A stretch of DNA of 64,000 bases. Source: Terriglobia bacterium (GTDB taxonomy: Bacteria; Acidobacteriota; Terriglobia; 20CM-2-55-15). The position numbers and the translations under genes were made by a program. Location: contig CBDCLE010000019.1 of the NCBI GenBank assembly GCA_965218585.1, positions 1 through 64,000 of the forward strand. The letters run 5' to 3'. Each line of letters begins with the position of its first letter. The first letter of the stretch is position 1. The notes under the pieces were generated by a model. It made no database searches and was not told the origin of the DNA. It worked only from the letters and a program-made list of their open reading frames with translations. Positions 29,928-54,429 of the stretch are shown here, one piece after another.

Positions 29928-30741
29928 GAGCGTGTTAACACTAACGTAGTGCCTCGACGATGAGTGCGAAGTGAAGGAAGGCGAGGAACATGACGTCGAG
30001 TTTATCGAAATGGGAGAAGATACGCCGAAAACCCTTGAGTCGGCGGAAGAGCCTCTCGACTTCGTTCCTGCGGCGGTAGAGCACGCGGTCGTATTCCCAC
30101 GGCTCCAGGCGGTTGCGCTTGGGCGGCACGACGGGAATCCACCCAAAATCCAGAGCCAATTGGCGGGTCTGGTCGTCCTGGTAGGCACGGTCCATCAGCA
30201 GCGGCAGCGGCGCGGGCAACGGCCCCAGGCCGGCGAGCAGATCGCGGCCCTGCGGGGCGTCGTGCGCTTGGCCGGGCGAGAGCGCAAACGTTATCGCCGT
30301 TCGAGCATTCGCGGCAACCAGATGAATCTTGGTGGTCCATCCACCGCGGGATTTGCCGATCGCTTGCGGACCGTTTTTTTTAACGCTCCCGTGCCGTCGG
30401 GATGCACCTTCACAATGGTCGAGTCCATCGAAACGGCTTCCACCCGGATGCGCACCAGTTGCTCGCGCTGGAGTTTTTCGAAGACGGCGTCGAGCACCCC
30501 GTTCTTGGACCAGCGGTTCATCCGGGTGTAGATGGTGTGCCAGTTGCCAAAGCGCTTGGGCAGACCGCGCCACTTGCAGCCCTGCTCAGCCACATACAAA
30601 ATGGCGTTCAAGACCGTCAGGTTCGAAAGACTGACGTTGCCCCGCTGACGCGGCAGTTCCGGCTCGATGCGACAATACTGCTCCTGTGTGATCTCCATGC
30701 CTGATTATAAAACATTCATGCTCATTAGTGTTAACACGCTC
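29928..30741 (-). mobile_element. IS5-family element (IS427-like)
   Basis: Perfect IRs GAGCGTGTTAACACTAA in CTAG context at both ends; two-ORF transposase. Confidence 0.93.
29941..30698 (-). CDS. IS5 transposase with probable programmed -1 frameshift at the A run near 30375-30382
   Basis: GCKWRGLPKRFGNWHTIYTRMNRW, MDSTIVKVH; GKSRGGWTTKIH, MDRAY, YRRRNEVERLF. Confidence 0.9.
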
Positions 30742-31760: not shown

Positions 31761-33616
31761 TGTCCAACGTCAATCAGAATTCCTTCTCGCATTGACTCAT
31801 TGAAAATGTTACCGAACTGAGGGTTGTTGCCTCATTAGAAATGTTACCCAACTCTATGAGAACGGAGGTGGGAAGTGAGGACACACATGACTGTTGCGGC
31901 AAGGCGAGAATTAGCTCTACGAACGGCGGTTCGCTACAAGAATGCGGCGCGACCGGAGAAGAAGCGAATCCTGGATGAGTTCCTTGAATCGACCGGGTTC
32001 CATCGGAAGCACGCGACACGGCTTCTGAACGACATTCTGAGGGGCGAACGGCCCCGACGGCAACCGCGCGGCCGGGTCCGTCGATACGGCCCCGCGGTGC
32101 AGGCCGCCCTGATCGCGGCCTGGCGCACAGTCAATGATGTCTGTGGCAAACGGCTCGTTCCGTTTCTGCCGGAGCTGATCCCGACCATGGAGCGTCACGG
32201 GCATCTGTCATTGTCTGATAAAACGCGGGCGGATCTGCTTGAGCTGAGCGCCGCCACGGCTGATCGGATCTTCCGTCAATTCCGATTCGATCATCGACCG
32301 CACGGCAAGACCACCACCAAGTCCGGACAGTTACTCAAACACCGCGTTCCGATTCGCACATTCGCCGACTGGGCGGACACGCGGCCGGGATTCATGGAAG
32401 CGGACTTGGTTGCACACTGCGGCGGGAACTCGGAAGGCCCTTTCCTCCACACCCTGGTACTGACCGACGTGGCGACCGGCTGGACCGAATGTCTGGCGTT
32501 GCTACGGCGTACGGAGGCGGACATTCTGCAGGCGCTCACGACGGCACGGCAGATCCTTCCGTTTCAGCTTGTCGGCCTGGACACGGATAACGGTTCCGAG
32601 TTCATGAACTACGGACTCCTCGCCTACTGCGAGCGTGAAACGATTCAATTCACCCGAGGCCGGGCGCGCCGGAAGAACGACCAGTGCTTCGTCGAACAGA
32701 AGAACGGCTCGATCGTCCGCCAATTGGTCGGCTACGACCGCTACGAAGGCTCACTGGCATACAGGCAGCTTGCCGAGCTCTACCGAGTGGTCCGGCTCTA
32801 CGTGAACTTCTTCCAGCCGTCCATGAAGCTCACGACGAAGACTCGCGATGGATCCCGGGTGACGAAACGCTACGATATCGCGCAAACACCCTATCAACGG
32901 CTCTCGAATTCGGATGCGCTCGACCCGGAGGTTCGCGTTCGCCTTGCTGCGATTTATGAACGTTCGGATCCGGTCGATCTCCTACGACAGCTTGAGAAAC
33001 TCCAGGATGCATTCTGGAGACATGCGAAGGAACTGGCCTCTCCCACGCTAACGGACGACATCGTGCGCGCCGCCCTTGTGTCCCCGAACTGCGACGCAGA
33101 TGCAGACCGAGCCCCGATTGAGGCGGAACTCCCCGATCCCGGCTTCGAGCAACGAATCACGCGTCGGTATCGCAAAACACGGAAACAACCTGTGCCCCAC
33201 ATCTGGCGTACTCGCCCGGACCCGTTCGACGGCGTCTGGGAGGAGATGCGGTCATGGCTTGAATCCGATCCCGGGCGAACATCAAAGTCGCTGTTGCTTG
33301 AGCTTCAGCAGCGGCGCCCGGGACGTTACCCCAACGGTCAGTTACGGACCCTGCAGCGGCGCGTGCGCGAATGGCGGCGTCAGATTCTGGAGACTTTCGA
33401 TGGCGAGTGGCTCGAACTGGATCGGGTCCGCCCGGCTTCAGCATCTGCGGGCGACGGGGGCTGTGGAAAAGGCGGTCGCCCCACAGCCTCGACGGCGGGA
33501 AGAACTCTCCCGTTTGACCGGTCGTTCGGTAACATTTCTAATGAGGCAACAACCCTCAGTTCGGTAACATTTTTAAATGAGGCAATACGAGAAGGAATTC
33601 TGATTGACGTTGGACA
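31761..33616 (+). mobile_element. rve/DDE transposable element with ~88-bp terminal IRs (TGT...ACA)
   Basis: 31761-31848 nearly matches the reverse complement of ~33528-33616; two TTGCCTCATTAGAAATGTTACC-like sites per end; no target duplication. Confidence 0.9.
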
Positions 33617-33845
33617 ACGCCCACAACGACTAGATCCAGCATCTCCGTACGCGAGTTCATCTGGACACGGCCCGCCCCGATCTGTCTCGATAGCGCCTGG
33701 TAGGCACCTAGCAGCAACTGTTGCCCCGTCTGGCCTCGAGCGTAGAACGTCCGGGATACCTGCGCTCCGCCGAAAGAACGGTTCGACAGAACGCCTCCGT
33801 ACTCACGAGCGAAAGGAACCCCCTGGGCGACACACTGGTCAATGA
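31888..33845 (+). CDS. rve-family transposase; ORF reads through the right IR, real 3' end probably near 33450-33530
   Basis: [40 protein letters not shown]-terminal [20 protein letters not shown]. Confidence 0.85.
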
Positions 33846-33940
33846 TGTTGAGGCTGATCTCGGCCAGACGATAGACGTTTGCCTCTCGCGACCGATAATC
33901 TCCACCTTTGATGGTGTCGTAGAAAAGACGAAACACGCTG

Positions 33941-33972
<32 letters not shown>

Positions 33973-34238
33973 TATTCCCCCTTGGGCTGCGATGCTATGC
34001 GCTCGGCGAGGGCTATCCTGGTAGCAGAAGCATTTGACGTTGTAGCCCAGTTCCGCTAGGGATGCCGCCGCCGCCGCACCCGCCAACCCGGAGCCGACGA
34101 CAATAACGCTGTGCCTGCGTTTGTTCGCCGGATTGACGAGCCTTAACCGAAACTGGCGTCGTTTCCACTTCTTCTCAATAGGGCCTGACGGAATTTTCGG
34201 CGATTACTCACTTCACACGCTCAAATCTGCATAGAGAT

Positions 34239-34287
34239 TTGCCACTAACTCCAGAAGCCCCTAGAATTATTACACTCTAGGGGCTTC
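34239..34287 (+). promoter_or_regulatory. Promoter TTGCCA-N17-TAGAAT for the tRNA, overlapped by a 12-bp inverted repeat
   Basis: -35 at 34239-34244, -10 at 34262-34267; GAAGCCCCTAGA (34254-34265)/TCTAGGGGCTTC (34276-34287). Confidence 0.6.
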
Positions 34288-34292
34288 ATTTT

Positions 34293-34378
34293 GGAGAGGT
34301 GGCTGAGAGGTTTAAAGCGGGTGACTTCTAATCACTTGTGGGCACAATCCACCGTGGGTTCGAATCCCACCCTCTCCT
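34293..34378 (+). tRNA. Class II (long variable arm) tRNA with Ser-type body and UCU (Arg) anticodon; CCA not encoded
   Basis: Acceptor GGAGAGG/CCTCTCC, D arm GCTGAGAGGTTTAAAGC, GGTGA-CT-TCT-AA-TCACT, V arm GTGGG-CACAA-TCCAC, T arm GTGGG-TTCGAAT-CCCAC. Confidence 0.9.
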
Positions 34379-34419
34379 CTAAGCTGCTCTCCCCAAATTC
34401 AATTTTAGTACGACTATCA

Positions 34420-35175
34420 TCACCGAAAGACTGTCATAGGGAAGGTCGAAAACATGAGGCCATCAAAGAATAATCCTATAGCACTTACCGGAGAATCACA
34501 GAACAATGTACCCCTCCTAATTATAAATTCATCCTCTGGAAGACTCAGTATCTCATCTATGAATAGAGTATGACTGCTCTTTGATCCAATAGAAAACTCA
34601 AAGAAGTATTCTTCTTTGTAGAATACTTCTATTGAGCAATTTGCATCTCTATTTTGGTCATTAGCAATTCCCACAGCCATACGCTGCCCAATCTCTACCC
34701 ACTGGTTAATCCACAATGTAAGAAATTCTCCTGGTTGGGAGGAAAAGACAGCTGCTATTCCATAGGGAAAATAGTTAGCGTCATAGAACCCATATTGTAT
34801 GAATGCTGCAACAGGAGCAGTACATTCCAAAGTAGCATATCCAGTCTCTATGTCACTACCAGCACCGGTAGTTCTTACCAACATATTTGGATTATTCTCT
34901 GGAAAAGTAAAAGCTGCCCCATCATCAATTATAGAGAATACCGGACTAGGAACAAGCCGATCTGAGCTTATCCCATAGAGAGTATAAGCACATCGAGGAT
35001 TGTTCGGATAGCTAGTATTGGTAAGGTATAAATGGGAGAAGAAGTGTGCCCCATCCCCAAACTCCCCATCTGCTATCACAGGAAATACATGATAGGTTTT
35101 GGATGTCTCATCTACGTTCTGTCCTAGCGCCGAAGCAGAAACCAACAGAAAAGATAACAAAGTTAGGAATTTCAT
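34420..35175 (-). CDS. Secreted beta-rich hypothetical protein (cassette cargo)
   Basis: Signal peptide MKFLTLLSFLLVSASALG; two similar halves each with a Cys pair and C(T/D)(A/S)PV. Confidence 0.75.
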   Translation of the reverse strand: MKFLTLLSFLLVSASALGQNVDETSKTYHVFPVIADGEFGDGAHFFSHLYLTNTSYPNNPRCAYTLYGISSDRLVPSPVFSIIDDGAAFTFPENNPNMLVRTTGAGSDIETGYATLECTAPVAAFIQYGFYDANYFPYGIAAVFSSQPGEFLTLWINQWVEIGQRMAVGIANDQNRDANCSIEVFYKEEYFFEFSIGSKSSHTLFIDEILSLPEDEFIIRRGTLFCDSPVSAIGLFFDGLMFSTFPMTVFR

Positions 35176-35193
35176 GGAAGGCTCCAATTGAAA

Positions 35194-35316
35194 TCCTATG
35201 CTGAGGGAATGGTACAGAAGAAAGCTATCAGGTAAGATACCGTCTAGGCTAACTCTTCCTCAGCATAGGAGGGTTAGCTCAGAACCCGCTCGGTGACTGT
35301 AACACTGGGCGGGTTC
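35194..35316 (-). promoter_or_regulatory. Structured 5' leader with mutually exclusive pairings
   Basis: Hairpins 35282-35316 and 35248-35278; 35258-35270 also pairs perfectly (13 bp) with 35194-35206 next to the RBS. Confidence 0.6.
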
Positions 35317-35361
35317 GTCCCAATCCCCTCATAATATCACACATGAGGTTTGCTCAATGAC

Positions 35362-35390
35362 TTGACTTTCACGACAAATCGTGCTCTAAT
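35362..35390 (+). promoter_or_regulatory. Promoter TTGACT-N17-TCTAAT with palindrome CACGA-N4-TCGTG in the spacer
   Basis: Read directly; lies just 5' of the structured RNA. Confidence 0.5.
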
Positions 35391-35405
35391 ACAAGCGGTG
35401 CGGTG

Positions 35406-35624
35406 CATGAATAGAATGAACCAGTCATATCACAAATTCTGAGAGAAAACAGCTCTCAGAAAAGGAGGTGCCATGTGAACGGATTTGGCGGACTACATGA
35501 ACCAACTCCTATAGTGTAGATGAGACGGACACAAGTGCAGGCATTTCTTAGGTTTGGTGGTTACTAATCAATGCCCTGTCCGCCTCATCAATCACCGAGA
35601 CATGACTGGTTCATTCTATTCATG
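35406..35624. ncRNA. Candidate structured RNA: 23-bp perfect closing stem plus three internal hairpins
   Basis: CATGAATAGAATGAACCAGTCAT (35406-35428)/35602-35624; hairpins 35437-35461, 35463-35510, 35519-35589. Confidence 0.65.
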
Positions 35625-35714
35625 AATCCTACATAGCAAATTTTCCCCCTTGCAATTTTCGTCCTTCATGTGCTAAAATCAGGTATAGGAAACGACGTAA
35701 GGAGGAAAGAAAAA

Positions 35715-35936
35715 ATGCAAGTTGGACCATCTATCTTATTGCGTGAAATACCACCCGATGGGATTCGTCTGATTCTCCAAAGTACAAATCAACCCCACGA
35801 CATCCCAGGGAAACGTCTCCTTTCAAAAGCTGAGGCTGCTCTTTTAGCTTTTGGGCTTCTTCTGGAGTTAGGGCACACCACGGACAATCAGATTCTTGAT
35901 TCTTTTCATTGGGCTGAGAAATTTCTGCAGCAATAA
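35715..35936 (+). CDS. Small hypothetical protein, 73 aa (cassette cargo)
   Basis: SD AAGGAGG; upstream TTGCAA..TGCTAAAAT promoter-like sequence. Confidence 0.6.
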   Translation: MQVGPSILLREIPPDGIRLILQSTNQPHDIPGKRLLSKAEAALLAFGLLLELGHTTDNQILDSFHWAEKFLQQ

Positions 35937-36009
35937 CCGAAGAGTGCGTCAAGTTAGTTGACATTTGCTTACCTCCAAGATAAGACGTTGGCAGTCAAGG
36001 AAAAGAGAA

Positions 36010-36228
36010 ATGCAATTCAGCATTGATCGCGTTCAAGGCTTAGTAAATAGAGTTGAACTTGCCGGATCGACTGGAAAGAACAAATTATTGTGCTTGAATT
36101 TTCACCTCGAACCACTACAGCTTCAGTATCTCCCCTTTCAACCTGAAGTCCTCCTTCTAATTGCACCCAACGAGGCACAGAAGCTATCCGACGATCTGCT
36201 AAAGCTTCTAATTCCGCATCAGAGGTAG
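36010..36228 (+). CDS. Small hypothetical protein, 72 aa (cassette cargo)
   Basis: Purine-rich RBS; stop codon overlaps the right IR. Confidence 0.5.
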   Translation: MQFSIDRVQGLVNRVELAGSTGKNKLLCLNFHLEPLQLQYLPFQPEVLLLIAPNEAQKLSDDLLKLLIPHQR

Positions 36229-36281
36229 AGCGTGTCAAGTGAGTAATCGCCGAATTTTCGTGTCGAGTTTCATCAGTTGAT

Positions 36282-36944
36282 TCAGCTCACTACGCCGATC
36301 AGCATGGCGATCGGGATGGATATGTAGCCCAGGACGATGAGGGAGCTGACGACGACCGATCCGTGCCGAATCAGCGGATCATATCTGGAGTGATTGAGGC
36401 CCAGGGACTGAAACATGCTCCAGATCCCATGTCCCATATGAAGTCCGAGGCTTCCCACGGCTGCTATATAAAATATCGCTACAGGCCACTCCTGGAATCC
36501 TGTGACTACGTTTCGATAAACACTTTCCGCGTTGAAGTTCGGGTACGACGGATGAACCGTGCCGAACGTAAAGTGCAATAGATGGTAAATCACGAAAAGT
36601 GCGATGATGGGCCCGCTCCAAACCATCGTGCGAGACGCGTAACTCGCGTCCCTGTATTTGTGGCGTTGGTAGGGCACAGGGCGGGCCGATCGGTTCCGAG
36701 TCGCAAGATGCACTGCGGCCAGGACGTGAAAGCCGACCGCGCTAACAAGGGAGATTCGGGCGGTCCAGAGGAACTGTGGCGTTCCCTTCAGCAGCTTTGC
36801 CCAAGCGTCGAGGGTTTCCGGACCTGCGAAGATCTGGAGATTTCCGGCCAGGTGCCCAATGATGAACCCGAAAAGGACAATGCCGGTCGCGACCACCACG
36901 ATCTTCTTGCCGAGGGATGAACGATAAAAGCCGGGAATCCACAT
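36282..36944 (-). CDS. sdhC: Succinate dehydrogenase cytochrome b subunit
   Basis: SSLGKK..TG..HLAGNL, ASRTM, HLLHFT, HMGHGIWSMFQSLG; directly upstream of sdhA. Confidence 0.9.
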   Translation of the reverse strand: MWIPGFYRSSLGKKIVVVATGIVLFGFIIGHLAGNLQIFAGPETLDAWAKLLKGTPQFLWTARISLVSAVGFHVLAAVHLATRNRSARPVPYQRHKYRDASYASRTMVWSGPIIALFVIYHLLHFTFGTVHPSYPNFNAESVYRNVVTGFQEWPVAIFYIAAVGSLGLHMGHGIWSMFQSLGLNHSRYDPLIRHGSVVVSSLIVLGYISIPIAMLIGVVS

Positions 36945-53050: not shown

Positions 53051-54429
53051 CGGTCGAGTTCTCCGCCGATCATGTTGACTGACCCAAAAGTGGGGACCAT
53101 ATCGGCCATCATGTCCCCGATGAGGAGCGTGGGCAGTGCCGACATAATAGCGAAGCAGGGCGGGCGGACCCGGACCCGGTAGGCACGTTCGGCGCCGTCG
53201 CTTACAACGTAGAATCCGAGTTCTCCGTTTGCGCCCTCCACCGGGAAATAAACTTCTCCCTCGGGCGGTCGCACGCCGTGGCCGAACATGACCAGCTTGA
53301 AGTGGTTCATGAGCCCCTCGATGTTGCCGTAGGTATCCTCTTTAGGGGGTAGGGAGACGCGTTTCTCATCTGTGGCAATGGACGGATGTTCCCCGCGACT
53401 CGCTCCCTCGAGAGTGGGTCCGACCACGGCCCGTCCATCTGAAATGGCCTCGATGTTGCCGATCTTGGCCAGGTCCACCATCTCGGCGGCGGGGATCGCC
53501 CGACCCGTCTCAGGGTCGACCAGAATCGGACCGGGCGGTATGTCGGCAAGCGCCGTTTCCACGATACGCATGGACTGTTCCATTTCTTCCATGCGTACCA
53601 GATAGCGATCCATGTTGTCGCCCCGGCTTCCGACCGGCACGTCGAAAGGTATCCGGTCGTAGACGGCGTACGGGCAGTCTTTGCGCACGTCGTAGTCCGA
53701 TCCGGTGGCACGCAGGAACGGTCCTGTGATCCCATAGGCGATCGCGTCGTCTGTGGAAATTACACCTGTTCCGTTCATGCGGTCGGTGAAAATACGGTTA
53801 CGCGTGAGGAGCCCATCGGCCTCGGCGAGGACCTTGCGGGTCTCCCGAAAGGCCTCGTGGCAAGGCTCGGCGAAGTCATCGGGAAGGTCGGCTTTAACAC
53901 CGCCCACGCGGCAGTAAGTGACCGTCAACCGCGCGCCGGTGACCTTCTCGATCAATTCCCACAGATACTCACGGGCCTTGATCATGTACAGAAAGACGCT
54001 GAACGCGCCCAACTCCATAGCGGTGGCGCCGACGCAGGTCAGGTGATCCGAGATCCTTGAAATCTCGGAGAGAATAACCCGGATGTAGTGGCAACGCTCG
54101 GGGACCGAGATCCCGAGGAGCTTCTCCACCGCCATGCAGTAGCCCATGTTGTTGATAAGTGGCGACACATAGTTGAGCCGGTCGGTGTAAGGCATGACGC
54201 CGTTGTAGTCCACCGTTTCAGCCATCTTCTCGAATCCGCGGTGCAGGTAGCCAATCTCCACTTCGGCGTCCTCGATCTGCTCCCCGTCGAGCTTGGCGAC
54301 GATCCGGACAATCCCGTGCATGGCGGGGTGTGCGGGGCCCACGTTGAGAAGCATGTCGCGCGTTTCGAGTTCTGCTGGCTCGCTTCCAGACGTCGGTGTC
54401 GCTCCGTGGAATGGGATATTTTTTGCCAT
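53047..54429 (-). CDS. nuoD: NADH-quinone oxidoreductase subunit D
   Basis: GPAHPAMHG, GYLHRGFEK, DRLNY, GELDR. Confidence 0.95.
   Translation of the reverse strand: MAKNIPFHGATPTSGSEPAELETRDMLLNVGPAHPAMHGIVRIVAKLDGEQIEDAEVEIGYLHRGFEKMAETVDYNGVMPYTDRLNYVSPLINNMGYCMAVEKLLGISVPERCHYIRVILSEISRISDHLTCVGATAMELGAFSVFLYMIKAREYLWELIEKVTGARLTVTYCRVGGVKADLPDDFAEPCHEAFRETRKVLAEADGLLTRNRIFTDRMNGTGVISTDDAIAYGITGPFLRATGSDYDVRKDCPYAVYDRIPFDVPVGSRGDNMDRYLVRMEEMEQSMRIVETALADIPPGPILVDPETGRAIPAAEMVDLAKIGNIEAISDGRAVVGPTLEGASRGEHPSIATDEKRVSLPPKEDTYGNIEGLMNHFKLVMFGHGVRPPEGEVYFPVEGANGELGFYVVSDGAERAYRVRVRPPCFAIMSALPTLLIGDMMADMVPTFGSVNMIGGELDR

Follow-up and report, generated by a model that had tools for sequence, protein, structure and literature searches.

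What would a transfer RNA (tRNA) gene with a serine-type body and an arginine anticodon, carried by a transposable cassette, do in a bacterium that already reads the same codons with a normal tRNA? The question is raised by positions 34293-34378 of the window, by which we mean the whole 64,000-nucleotide (nt) stretch of Terriglobia bacterium DNA analysed here. The window is contig C19 of host assembly G000, which comprises 4.55 Mb at 57% GC in 26 contigs, with 3.3% contamination. The gene proved to be a tRNA-Ser derivative with the anticodon UCU, and it is the cargo of a 2053-bp transposase-less cassette (34199-36251). At about an even chance of being right, we read its product as a seryl-accepting missense tRNA for AGA and AGG codons and as a canonical-fold cousin of the acidobacterial allo-tRNAs.

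ARAGORN reported a sole tRNA in the 64-kb window, at 34293-34379 on the plus strand with the anticodon tct at 34327-34329 (tRNA position 35). Likewise, the Rfam model RF00005 matched 34293-34378 at full length (model positions 1-71) with 62.1 bits, compared to a gathering score of 29 (E 4.7e-11).

34293-34378, plus strand: class II tRNA with long variable arm, 7/5 fold, tRNA-Ser body, UCU anticodon, U20 and U73 (ARAGORN, Rfam and the R1/R2 models described below)

In the ARAGORN drawing the acceptor stem has 7 bp (GGAGAGG/CCUCUCC), the D stem 3 bp (GCU/AGC) with an 11-nt loop GAGAGGUUUAA, and the anticodon stem 5 bp with a 7-nt loop, CUUCUAA, that includes U33 and A37. The variable arm is a 5-bp stem (GUGGG/UCCAC) with a 5-nt loop, and the 5-bp T stem carries a perfect T loop, UUCGAAU. 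All stems are paired and all conserved tertiary positions are kept, in a stretch of 45% GC. Since the eighth acceptor pair would be U8-C65, which is unable to pair, the fold is 7/5 rather than 8/4 or 9/3. Position 20, following G18G19, is U both in the sequence and in alignments to Ser and Arg tRNAs. The discriminator is U73 (34378), and CCA is not encoded, as is also true of the host Ser tRNA genes. An earlier annotation made by a model from the letters alone, hereafter the original prediction, had described the 7/5 cloverleaf, the 5-bp long variable arm, the Ser-like acceptor and D arm, TCT, U20, U73 and the missing CCA, and every one of these was confirmed position by position.

We next scored the gene using two covariance models, R1 built from 19 Ser tRNAs and R2 from 27 Arg tRNAs, both drawn from the host, its relatives and three metagenomic contigs. 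The window tRNA scored 89.8 bits with R1 versus 32.3 bits with R2. Host Ser tRNAs, which were part of the training set, reached 99.6-105.5 and 13.5-23.4 bits, respectively, while the host Arg tRNAs, also in training, reached 27-37.4 and 88.7-101.4 bits; a Ser tRNA from outside the training set scored 87.8 bits with R1. By a margin of ~57 bits, the body of the window tRNA is serine-type, and the Ser-versus-Arg isotype comparison named in the original prediction came out for Ser with these clade-specific models. Sequence comparisons gave the same picture. The acceptor stem is identical to those of host Ser(CGA) and Ser(GCU), including G1-C72 and G2-C71, which the consulted portions of a review of tRNA identity describe as conserved bacterial Ser features (PMC9976931, Giege and Eriani 2023). 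The whole T arm is the same as that of host tRNA-Ser(CGA), with an overall identity of 80%, and the 14 host tRNAs nearest to the window tRNA include zero tRNA-Arg. When the cassette was compared with 40 relatives, tRNA-Ser genes alone matched (gct, gga or cga at 9 of 9 loci), at ~74% over the full tRNA length. The D arm is also Ser-type, with a 3-bp stem containing C11-G24, insertions at 20a/20b and a gap-free alignment to the 19 Ser tRNAs; its UUU at 20-20b is present as well in a bona fide Ser(GGA) of the relative G010.

The anticodon raises the alternative that the product accepts Arg, or both Arg and Ser, with arginyl-tRNA synthetase (ArgRS) reading C35 and U36 and the tRNA providing extra AGA/AGG decoding for the AT-richer genes of the cassette. 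The portions of the review consulted here rank A20 as the main E. coli ArgRS determinant, followed by C35 and U/G36 (PMC9976931). All 27 Arg tRNAs from the host and its relatives had A at position 20 and all 19 Ser tRNAs a pyrimidine, whereas the window tRNA has U. It thus carries the Arg determinants C35 and U36 and lacks both A20 and the class I architecture of tRNA-Arg (short variable loop, 4-bp D stem). Together with the R2 score, these two differences led us to reject its membership in tRNA-Arg. Arginine charging would fit the loss of a Ser determinant through the change of G73 to U, the 45% GC of the cassette in a 57% GC genome, and the share of AGA and AGG (together AGR) among the Arg codons of the largest cassette open reading frame (ORF), which is 4 of 8. 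It fits poorly with the class II fold, the Ser-type D loop and the canonical tRNA-Arg(UCU) and (CCU) already in the host, and a tRNA-Ser scaffold would be an odd route to an Arg tRNA. We consider this alternative quite unlikely. Compared with published identity features, the window tRNA has every Ser feature except G73 and, of the Arg features, only C35 and U36, U73 being listed as well in the review's Arg table. It belongs to tRNA-Ser by architecture and score, and departs from that class in its anticodon, which is neither NGA nor GCU, and at position 73.

The nearest sequences suggest how the gene arose. A metagenome scan in which the anticodon was left open returned 19 loci, all of them lacking a UCU anticodon: 13 were tRNA-Ser(CGA), 5 were tRNA-Asn genes matched by chance and 1 was no tRNA. 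The 13 tRNA-Ser(CGA) are near-identical to the window tRNA across the first 34 nt and the anticodon stem. Compared with the nearest of them, the window tRNA has the same flanking anticodon stem but another base at each of the three anticodon positions, and the stem differences amount to one compensated T-stem pair and one change from G-C to G-U. A replaced anticodon on otherwise matching stems makes the window gene look like a maintained tRNA-Ser derivative rather than a decaying copy. These data bear on a further alternative, in which the gene is a silent or crippled hitchhiker, that is, a mobile tRNA-Ser copy that has drifted in its anticodon and discriminator and is unexpressed or not usefully aminoacylated. 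The departure of U73 from the invariant G73 of Ser tRNAs speaks for this alternative, and the window tRNA was a singleton in all searches. In contrast, intact stems and conserved tertiary positions, and the replacement of all three anticodon bases beside an identical stem, are unlike random decay. We return to this alternative below, and hold it to be unlikely.

Turning to the vehicle, a 32-nt "inverted repeat" reported by a repeat finder was resolved into an 8-bp direct repeat and 24-nt terminal inverted repeats:

34191-34198, no strand: left target-site duplication, 8 bp, GAATTTTC, identical to 36252-36259
34199-34222, plus strand: left terminal inverted repeat, 24 nt, beginning GGCGATTACTCACTT and pairing with 36228-36251 with 1 mismatch
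36228-36251, minus strand: right terminal inverted repeat, 24 nt, pairing with 34199-34222
36252-36259, no strand: right target-site duplication, 8 bp, GAATTTTC, a perfect direct repeat

The cassette is inserted in codon 7-8 of an sdhA/frdA-like gene, and the interrupted operon reads as follows:

36282-36944, minus strand: cytochrome b subunit, sdhC-like, encoded upstream in the disrupted operon (Pfam PF01127)
36252-36273, minus strand: start of the interrupted sdhA/frdA-like gene, 7 codons encoding MKLDTKI (ATG AAA CTC GAC ACG AAA ATT C)
33556-34198, minus strand: sdhA/frdA-like gene continued, PSGPIEKKW..., with FAD_binding_2 (Pfam PF00890, E 1.7e-15, profile 9-177 of 414)

In the same-genus genomes G001 and G003 the site is uninterrupted, with a single GAAAATTC and one copy of the duplicated 8 bp, and the intact gene of relatives reads M(I/K)KLDTKIPSGP at the insertion point. 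Intact sdhA/frdA-like frames of 637-672 amino acids (aa), 94-96% identical over 156 aa, were found in four relatives, three of them congeners. The empty site in two congeners indicates that the cassette transposed into the gene after these species diverged. The target duplication, the inverted ends and the empty sites together confirm that the tRNA is mobile, as had been predicted. Descent of the tRNA 3' half from the attachment site of an integrase-type island was rejected, since the cassette has transposon ends and a target duplication and no integrase. Elsewhere in the host genome, a FAD-binding paralogue of the disrupted gene occupies a 610-aa frame and is 33% identical.

The same data speak to whether the locus is an artefact of assembly, binning or sequencing, for example through a miscalled position 34 in what is really a tRNA-Ser(GCU), or through a chimeric contig. 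The assembly is metagenome-style, with the contig number and contamination given above, and the four public runs that we compared (as Logan contigs) have a depth of ~2-7, come from one study and are possibly the assembly's own source; such contigs reveal only presence and junctions. Contigs of two of these runs (X1, covering 34130-34394, and X2, covering 34006-34393) agreed with the window throughout the tRNA, with zero variant letters, and the X2 contig departed from the window solely at 34064, beyond the tRNA, where it lacks 3 letters. The check over the anticodon foreseen in the original prediction therefore gave UCU in both runs and no sign of a Ser anticodon, at contig level. Three runs bridged the junctions without differences, the left by X1 and X2 and the right by X3. 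Moreover, the flanks are the host's own sdh genes, matching those of the four relatives, and a perfect 8-bp target duplication is the signature of real transposition. An artefact is barely credible.

The remaining features of the cassette are listed below.

34420-35175, minus strand: 251-aa cargo ORF that converges on the tRNA and has a signal-peptide-like N-terminus, no family match
35406-35624, no strand: internal 26-nt inverted-repeat pair enclosing 167 nt (arms 35406-35431 and 35599-35624, 96% complementary)
35715-35936, plus strand: small ORF of 73 aa after an AAGGAGG ribosome-binding site, with a promoter-like site at 35650-35679
36010-36228, plus strand: second small ORF of 72 aa, in tandem to the first and with a ribosome-binding site, no family match

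The internal inverted-repeat pair is single-copy in the genome; it may be a miniature element nested in the cassette, or else a structured RNA. Five cassette ORFs, four of which form two overlapping opposite-strand pairs, gave 0 matches in Pfam, NCBIfam and PADLOC; for the first small ORF it was the longer reading frame that was compared with these family libraries. The suggestion that the tRNA might act as a mistranslation-based toxin or anti-phage effector found no support in these comparisons. The 251-aa protein has one homologue among 5.8 billion clusters (P0002, 43% identity), and its look-alikes in the ESM Atlas are hypothetical proteins in unnamed clusters, most often from Acidobacteriota. 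The 4 AGR codons of this ORF align with P, S, G and G in the sole homologue, while 2 of 4 CGN Arg codons are kept as R. With four codons and one homologue, the alignment is an anecdotal and weak hint that AGR might be decoded as Ser.

We next asked to which family the cassette belongs. A genome search for similar ends with an 8-bp duplication led to C25:137652-139761, an element whose ends begin GGTGATTATACACTT, whose duplication is GTTTCTCC, and which encodes a 307-aa passenger and a 297-aa transposase with Zn_ribbon_IS1595 and DDE_Tnp_IS1595 domains (NF033547, 213 bits compared to a cut-off of 75). The genome holds at least 12 IS1595-type transposase loci. The end consensus GG[CT]GATTA[CT][AT][CT]ACTT is common to the cassette, to the element on C25 and to three elements on contig C2. 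These resident elements are bounded by inverted repeats, span 2.1 to 4.1 kb and carry extra genes, and the tRNA cassette is the only member of the set without a transposase. Within it, no Pfam or NCBIfam transposase match was obtained, and a tblastn search with the C25 transposase found none on C19. In ISfinder usage, IS1595-family elements duplicate 8 bp of their target and have terminal inverted repeats that open with GG; some bring passenger genes, and the family includes mobile insertion cassettes (MICs) that lack a transposase. On its sequence features, all of which agree with this description where tested, the cassette classifies as a non-autonomous IS1595-family MIC, and it is presumably moved in trans by the resident IS1595-type transposases. 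Because its ends differ from those of the transposase-encoding resident elements at 3 of the first 15 positions, we infer this cross-mobilisation rather than observe it. As a separate observation, an IS1595-type end lies ~50 nt 3' of a tRNA-Lys(UUU) on contig C5 (~53082-53209), which is an insertion beside a tRNA and not cargo.

The window tRNA itself had no close counterpart in the collections searched. The cassette without its tRNA gave 0 matches in 34 family genomes, the tRNA gave 0 matches at E <= 1e-13 in 400 class genomes, and in 400 phylum genomes its best four matches were 77-78% identical and were Ser gct or tga. We then scanned public collections with single patterns, so that the counts are lower bounds; the UCU pattern fixed U8, G9, A38 and the T loop GGTTCRAATCC. 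With one genome per species, the class II UCU pattern returned 91 loci, of which 15 were judged to be class II UCU tRNAs (R1 52.1-86.9 bits). By eye, the other 76 were archaeal tRNA-Arg-like sequences with an insert, 94-nt Ferruginibacter-type RNAs or non-tRNA. The 15 are spread over Patescibacteria/Saccharibacteria, Dehalococcoidia, Alpha- and Gammaproteobacteria, Bdellovibrionales and Planctomycetia, and under this pattern their frequency is ~15 in roughly 185,000 genomes. A scan of viral contigs returned 13 loci with a class II UCU tRNA in one (L107). Two members of the set, in a Patescibacteria metagenome-assembled genome (MAG; L012) and a Peregrinibacteria MAG (L077), have A73 and a GGGCCUG acceptor, score 52-58 bits with R1 and are Leu-like rather than Ser-like. 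The 94-nt tRNA-like sequence (GCGG..GGUGUAAUGGUAACA...CUCUUUUUCUAAGAGG...GGUUCAAAUCCGG...) is conserved and, although it matched the UCU pattern, is by eye no ordinary tRNA; it occurred in Ferruginibacter, Chitinophagaceae and other Bacteroidota (L019, L036, L041, L042, L055, L056, L060, L075 and L092).

Do such tRNAs recur on related elements? Among 20 ORFs flanking 12 of the 15 class II UCU loci (all except L012, L043 and L077), mobile-element domains were found at 3 loci, namely a serine recombinase (L024), an IS1595 transposase (L084) and a tyrosine recombinase (L095). When inverted repeats with an 8-bp duplication were sought around 16 class II UCU analogues, within their loci, the L084/L189 element alone had them. 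The Saccharibacteria MAG G763 contains a complete 1529-bp IS1595-family insertion sequence (IS) with 26-nt inverted ends, the 8-bp duplication GATAACTG and a 288-aa transposase, and inside its ends lies a class II tRNA(UCU) that scored 74.1 bits with R1 and 29.5 bits with R2. A canonical 73-nt tRNA-Arg(UCU) is also present elsewhere in that genome. Two elements with inverted repeats and target duplication thus carry a class II tRNA(UCU), the host cassette and the Saccharibacteria IS.

Homologues of the G763 transposase occurred in 10 of 201 relatives. At the 10 transposase loci from this set, which belongs to the candidate phyla radiation (CPR), class II tRNA-like genes were present at 3 and absent at 6, and an ordinary tRNA-Pro lay ~1.2 kb away at 1. 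The three genes have UCU (G763), ACG (G783) and, in a 96-nt gene, a 6-nt anticodon loop (G902). Among the CPR loci the tRNA lies between identified ends only in G763; the far end was not found in G783 or G902. On the host side, 30 IS1595-type transposase loci (in 23 of 41 genomes) yielded a class II tRNA(UGG) at 1, ordinary tRNAs near 2 and a poor call at 1; no element ends were found around the class II tRNA(UGG), which is in G031.

L200 2512-2600 (G783), complement: 89-nt class II tRNA-like gene with ACG (Arg), by an IS1595-type transposase
L201 2035-2130 (G902), complement: 96-nt class II tRNA-like gene with a 6-nt anticodon loop, by an IS1595-type transposase
L234 2402-2491 (G031), complement: 90-nt class II tRNA with UGG (Pro) and A73, 90 nt 5' of a transposase gene

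The Saccharibacteria IS1595-type copies (L196 in G763, L200 in G783, L201 in G902 and L198 in G916) abut the sequence (TG)TGGATAACT, in both orientations, which suggests that this flank may be a preferred IS target. We take (TG)TGGATAACT to resemble the reverse complement of a DnaA box.

Since class II mismatched tRNAs are extremely rare, their repeated placement beside IS1595-type transposases is unlikely to be due to chance. It is a tentative possibility, clearly short of an even chance, that IS1595-family elements serve as vehicles for class II mismatched tRNAs, with Ser- or Leu-type bodies and Arg, Pro or other anticodons, as selected cargo in distant phyla. Were this the case, the tRNA would give its element a portable means of changing how particular sense codons are decoded, which might serve for addiction or toxicity, protect against AT-rich invaders, or diversify the proteome under regulation. 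The original prediction had looked to the anticodons of homologues for its refutation, but the searches yielded no orthologue of the cassette tRNA to which this could be applied. The nearest sequences are ordinary tRNA-Ser(CGA), and the analogues have UCU, ACG, UGG or an irregular loop. Such a range of anticodons in comparable class II tRNAs associated with transposons speaks against a function bound strictly to AGA. It is also compatible with a non-translational role for the transposon, with the tRNA acting as an RNase P/Z processing signal, a convergent antisense source, an anticodon-nuclease decoy or a regulator, since UCU twice, ACG, UGG and one irregular 6-nt loop beside IS1595-type transposases would suit a role independent of any one codon. 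The tRNA is, in addition, convergent with the next gene in both elements (the 251-aa ORF in the host and the transposase in the Saccharibacteria IS), and the portions of Mukai et al. consulted here propose regulatory or toxin-antitoxin (TA)-linked roles for inactive allo-tRNAs (PMC5389517). A mere processing signal would nonetheless have no need of the 7-nt anticodon loop with U33 and A37, the perfect T loop or the Ser-type acceptor that the gene has kept, and we judge a role of this kind to be very unlikely. For the hitchhiker alternative, a second IS1595 element from another phylum with the same kind of tRNA and the same anticodon is a point against it. For arginine charging, the CPR element is where the alternative must be taken seriously, as an Arg-charged UCU tRNA would be harmless in the low-GC Saccharibacteria.

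We next considered the host in which the window tRNA would act. Its genome has a canonical 74-nt tRNA-Arg(UCU), plus Arg CCU, ACG, UCG and CCG, and four tRNA-Ser genes (UGA, GGA, CGA and GCU). There is a single seryl-tRNA synthetase (SerRS), which has the N-terminal arm domain (Seryl_tRNA_N); no dedicated second synthetase was found in the host genome, and no extra synthetase adjoins the cassette. In 1911 long ORFs, AGA and AGG were used at 5.4 and 6.5 per 1000 codons, corresponding to 7.1% and 8.5% of Arg codons, so that to call them rare in this host, as had been done, is overstated. Upstream of the tRNA there are two candidate signals:

34239-34267, plus strand: candidate promoter-like site, TTGCCA-17-TAGAAT, 25 nt 5' of the tRNA, 10 of 12 positions matching
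34256-34285, plus strand: 10-bp hairpin followed by UCAUUUU, directly 5' of the tRNA, terminator- or insulator-like (fold of 34250-34296)

The hairpin fold of 34250-34296 has -24.6 kcal/mol (z -6.4), with 0 of 200 shuffles equally stable, and the -10 hexamer of the candidate promoter falls within the hairpin. The promoter that the gene had been said to own is therefore present as a motif, while its match is at chance level and it overlaps a strong hairpin.

We propose the following course of events for a seryl-accepting missense tRNA. A tRNA-Ser-derived gene, its anticodon replaced by UCU, would ride an IS1595-family cassette moved by transposases encoded elsewhere, and if transcribed, its product would be matured like any tRNA. 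The single bacterial-type SerRS would recognise the long variable arm, the tertiary shape and G1-C72/G2-C71, ignoring the anticodon, with U73 probably weakening the charging, while ArgRS would largely reject the tRNA for want of A20. The resulting Ser-tRNA(UCU) would then compete with tRNA-Arg(UCU) and (CCU) at AGA/AGG and cause low-level Arg-to-Ser missense, which might in some way benefit the element or the host. Ser insertion at these codons would follow from the published identity rules, as given in the portions of the review consulted here (PMC9976931).

Several observations weigh against this reading. No close homologue of the window tRNA or the cassette was found in the 34 family, 400 class and 400 phylum genomes or in the one metagenome scan. 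Position 73 was G in 19 of 19 Ser tRNAs and is U in the window tRNA; in the 27 Arg tRNAs it was mostly A, with G in three. The consulted portions of the review call G73 moderately important for E. coli SerRS and a determinant in vivo, term it strong for the bacterial-type SerRS in M. barkeri, and list U73 among the bacterial Arg acceptor elements in Table 1 (PMC9976931). Serylation could accordingly be poor, and some arginylation through C35, U36 and U73 is conceivable. The promoter-like matches in the cassette are at chance level (3 compared to 4.0 +/- 2.2 in shuffles). With ~12 AGR per 1000 codons, the host would be harmed by efficient insertion of Ser, a point in favour of a gene that is silent or only weakly active. 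In a low-GC CPR host, AGA should be the main Arg codon, and a Ser-charged UCU tRNA would be very costly there. Finally, the insertion is recent, so that an intact gene in the host says little on selection. The promoter within a terminator-like hairpin and the expected toxicity of an active form count equally for the silent hitchhiker, as does the finding, in the consulted portions of Mukai et al., that many transposon- or TA-associated allo-tRNA(UAU) are inactive in E. coli (PMC5389517). Taken together with the Ser-type body, the intact fold and the replaced anticodon, these points leave the seryl-accepting missense tRNA at the even chance given at the outset.

The sdh operon in the window has been struck by at least two mobile elements. 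A second IS cuts the sdhA/frdA-like gene again at ~33590, ~600 bp from the cassette insertion, and has directly repeated end motifs, GTTCGGTAACATTT, at 33524-33585.

31875-33845, plus strand: rve-type (IS481-like) transposase ORF of the second IS (Pfam rve, weak NCBIfam IS481 match)

This frame extends beyond the second IS into antisense sdhA. A DDE_Tnp_1 transposase ORF is also present in the window, at 29941-30573.

Natural tRNAs that join one identity to another's anticodon are rare, and they are raw material for code change and deliberate mistranslation. The mismatched tRNAs described so far are odd-shaped allo-tRNAs or lineage-fixed reassignment tRNAs. The present locus shows that a free-living bacterium can have, in addition to its normal tRNA-Arg(UCU), an ordinary tRNA-Ser scaffold with an arginine anticodon, and that the gene for it can ride a small transposable cassette whose insertion signature is clean. 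If charged with Ser, such a tRNA would be a source of Arg-to-Ser mistranslation able to move horizontally, with consequences for how codon reassignment begins, for what mistranslation costs and how it is controlled, and for how selfish elements affect their hosts. The link to IS1595 in two phyla raises a concrete census question, and the tRNA, ends and transposase form compact natural constructs.

How does the window tRNA compare with known systems? The tRNA-Arg(UCU) genes borne by genomic islands and phages supplement rare AGA/AGG decoding and are ordinary class I tRNAs with A20. The cassette is likewise mobile DNA that brings a UCU tRNA into a GC-richer host, but its tRNA has a Ser body and no A20. 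With the IS1595 elements that have passengers, and with MICs, the cassette shares the 8-bp duplication and the GG-starting ends, and its passenger is a tRNA gene. We found no literature report of a tRNA as IS1595, IS or MIC cargo, the allo-tRNA locus tables of Mukai 2017 not being covered.

The closest natural relatives in kind are the allo-tRNAs. In the consulted portions of Mukai et al. (PMC5389517; 2017, NAR 45:2776), these have Ser identity, a long variable arm and non-serine anticodons, and the 9/3 class includes AGA/AGG readers in Acidobacteria. The tested ones insert Ser in E. coli whatever their anticodon, and they often adjoin transposon-related genes or TA systems. They are defined by an 8/4 or 9/3 acceptor/T split (12-bp branch) with tRNA-Sec-like D and anticodon stems. 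Like them, the window tRNA pairs Ser identity elements with a non-Ser anticodon; unlike them, it folds as 7/5, with D and anticodon stems of 3 and 5 bp, respectively, and has U73. With neither the 8/4 or 9/3 split nor the long tRNA-Sec-like D and anticodon stems, we rejected it as an allo-tRNA. The structural reading in the original prediction, a serine body with an arginine UCU anticodon, a 7/5 fold unlike that of allo-tRNAs and mobility, holds and is now quantified.

Two further odd tRNAs were noted in the host genome. On contig C4 (complement 105179-105271; L227 2982-3071, minus), a 93-nt gene looks allo-tRNA-like: its acceptor stem has 8 bp, its D arm is small and resembles that of tRNA-Sec, its variable arm is long and its anticodon is UAG (Leu). 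It is additional to the normal 83-nt tRNA-Leu(UAG) and scored 47.0 bits with R1. On contig C22 (178573-178661; L226 3074-3162), an 89-nt class II-like tRNA has UGC (Ala), C33 instead of U33, and U73, and scored 53.6 bits. The odd tRNAs on C4, C22 and C2 were rejected as IS1595 cassette cargo, no IS1595-type end being found within 6 kb.

The closest engineered counterpart is a yeast tRNA-Ser(UCU, G26A), which in the consulted portions of the report gave ~3% Arg-to-Ser, mainly at AGA, and needed its dampening mutation for tolerance (bioRxiv 10.1101/2021.05.12.443880, Berg et al.). It has the same combination of Ser body and UCU, and is man-made, eukaryotic and chromosomally integrated, whereas the window tRNA is natural, bacterial and transposon-borne; by analogy, U73 might play the dampening role here. 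Candida tRNA-Ser(CAG), Streptomyces tRNA-ProX and the metazoan mitochondrial tRNA-Ser(UCU), which reads AGA as Ser, also combine the body of one identity with the anticodon of another, according to the portions of the sources consulted (PMC11415595, PMC4615739). Those reassignment tRNAs are vertically inherited or have a dedicated synthetase (ProRSx), in contrast to the window tRNA, which is a single-copy cassette passenger in a host that has kept its normal tRNA-Arg(UCU). Against this background, what appears to be new is a canonical-fold, transposon-borne Ser-type tRNA with an arginine anticodon, a putative missense tRNA.

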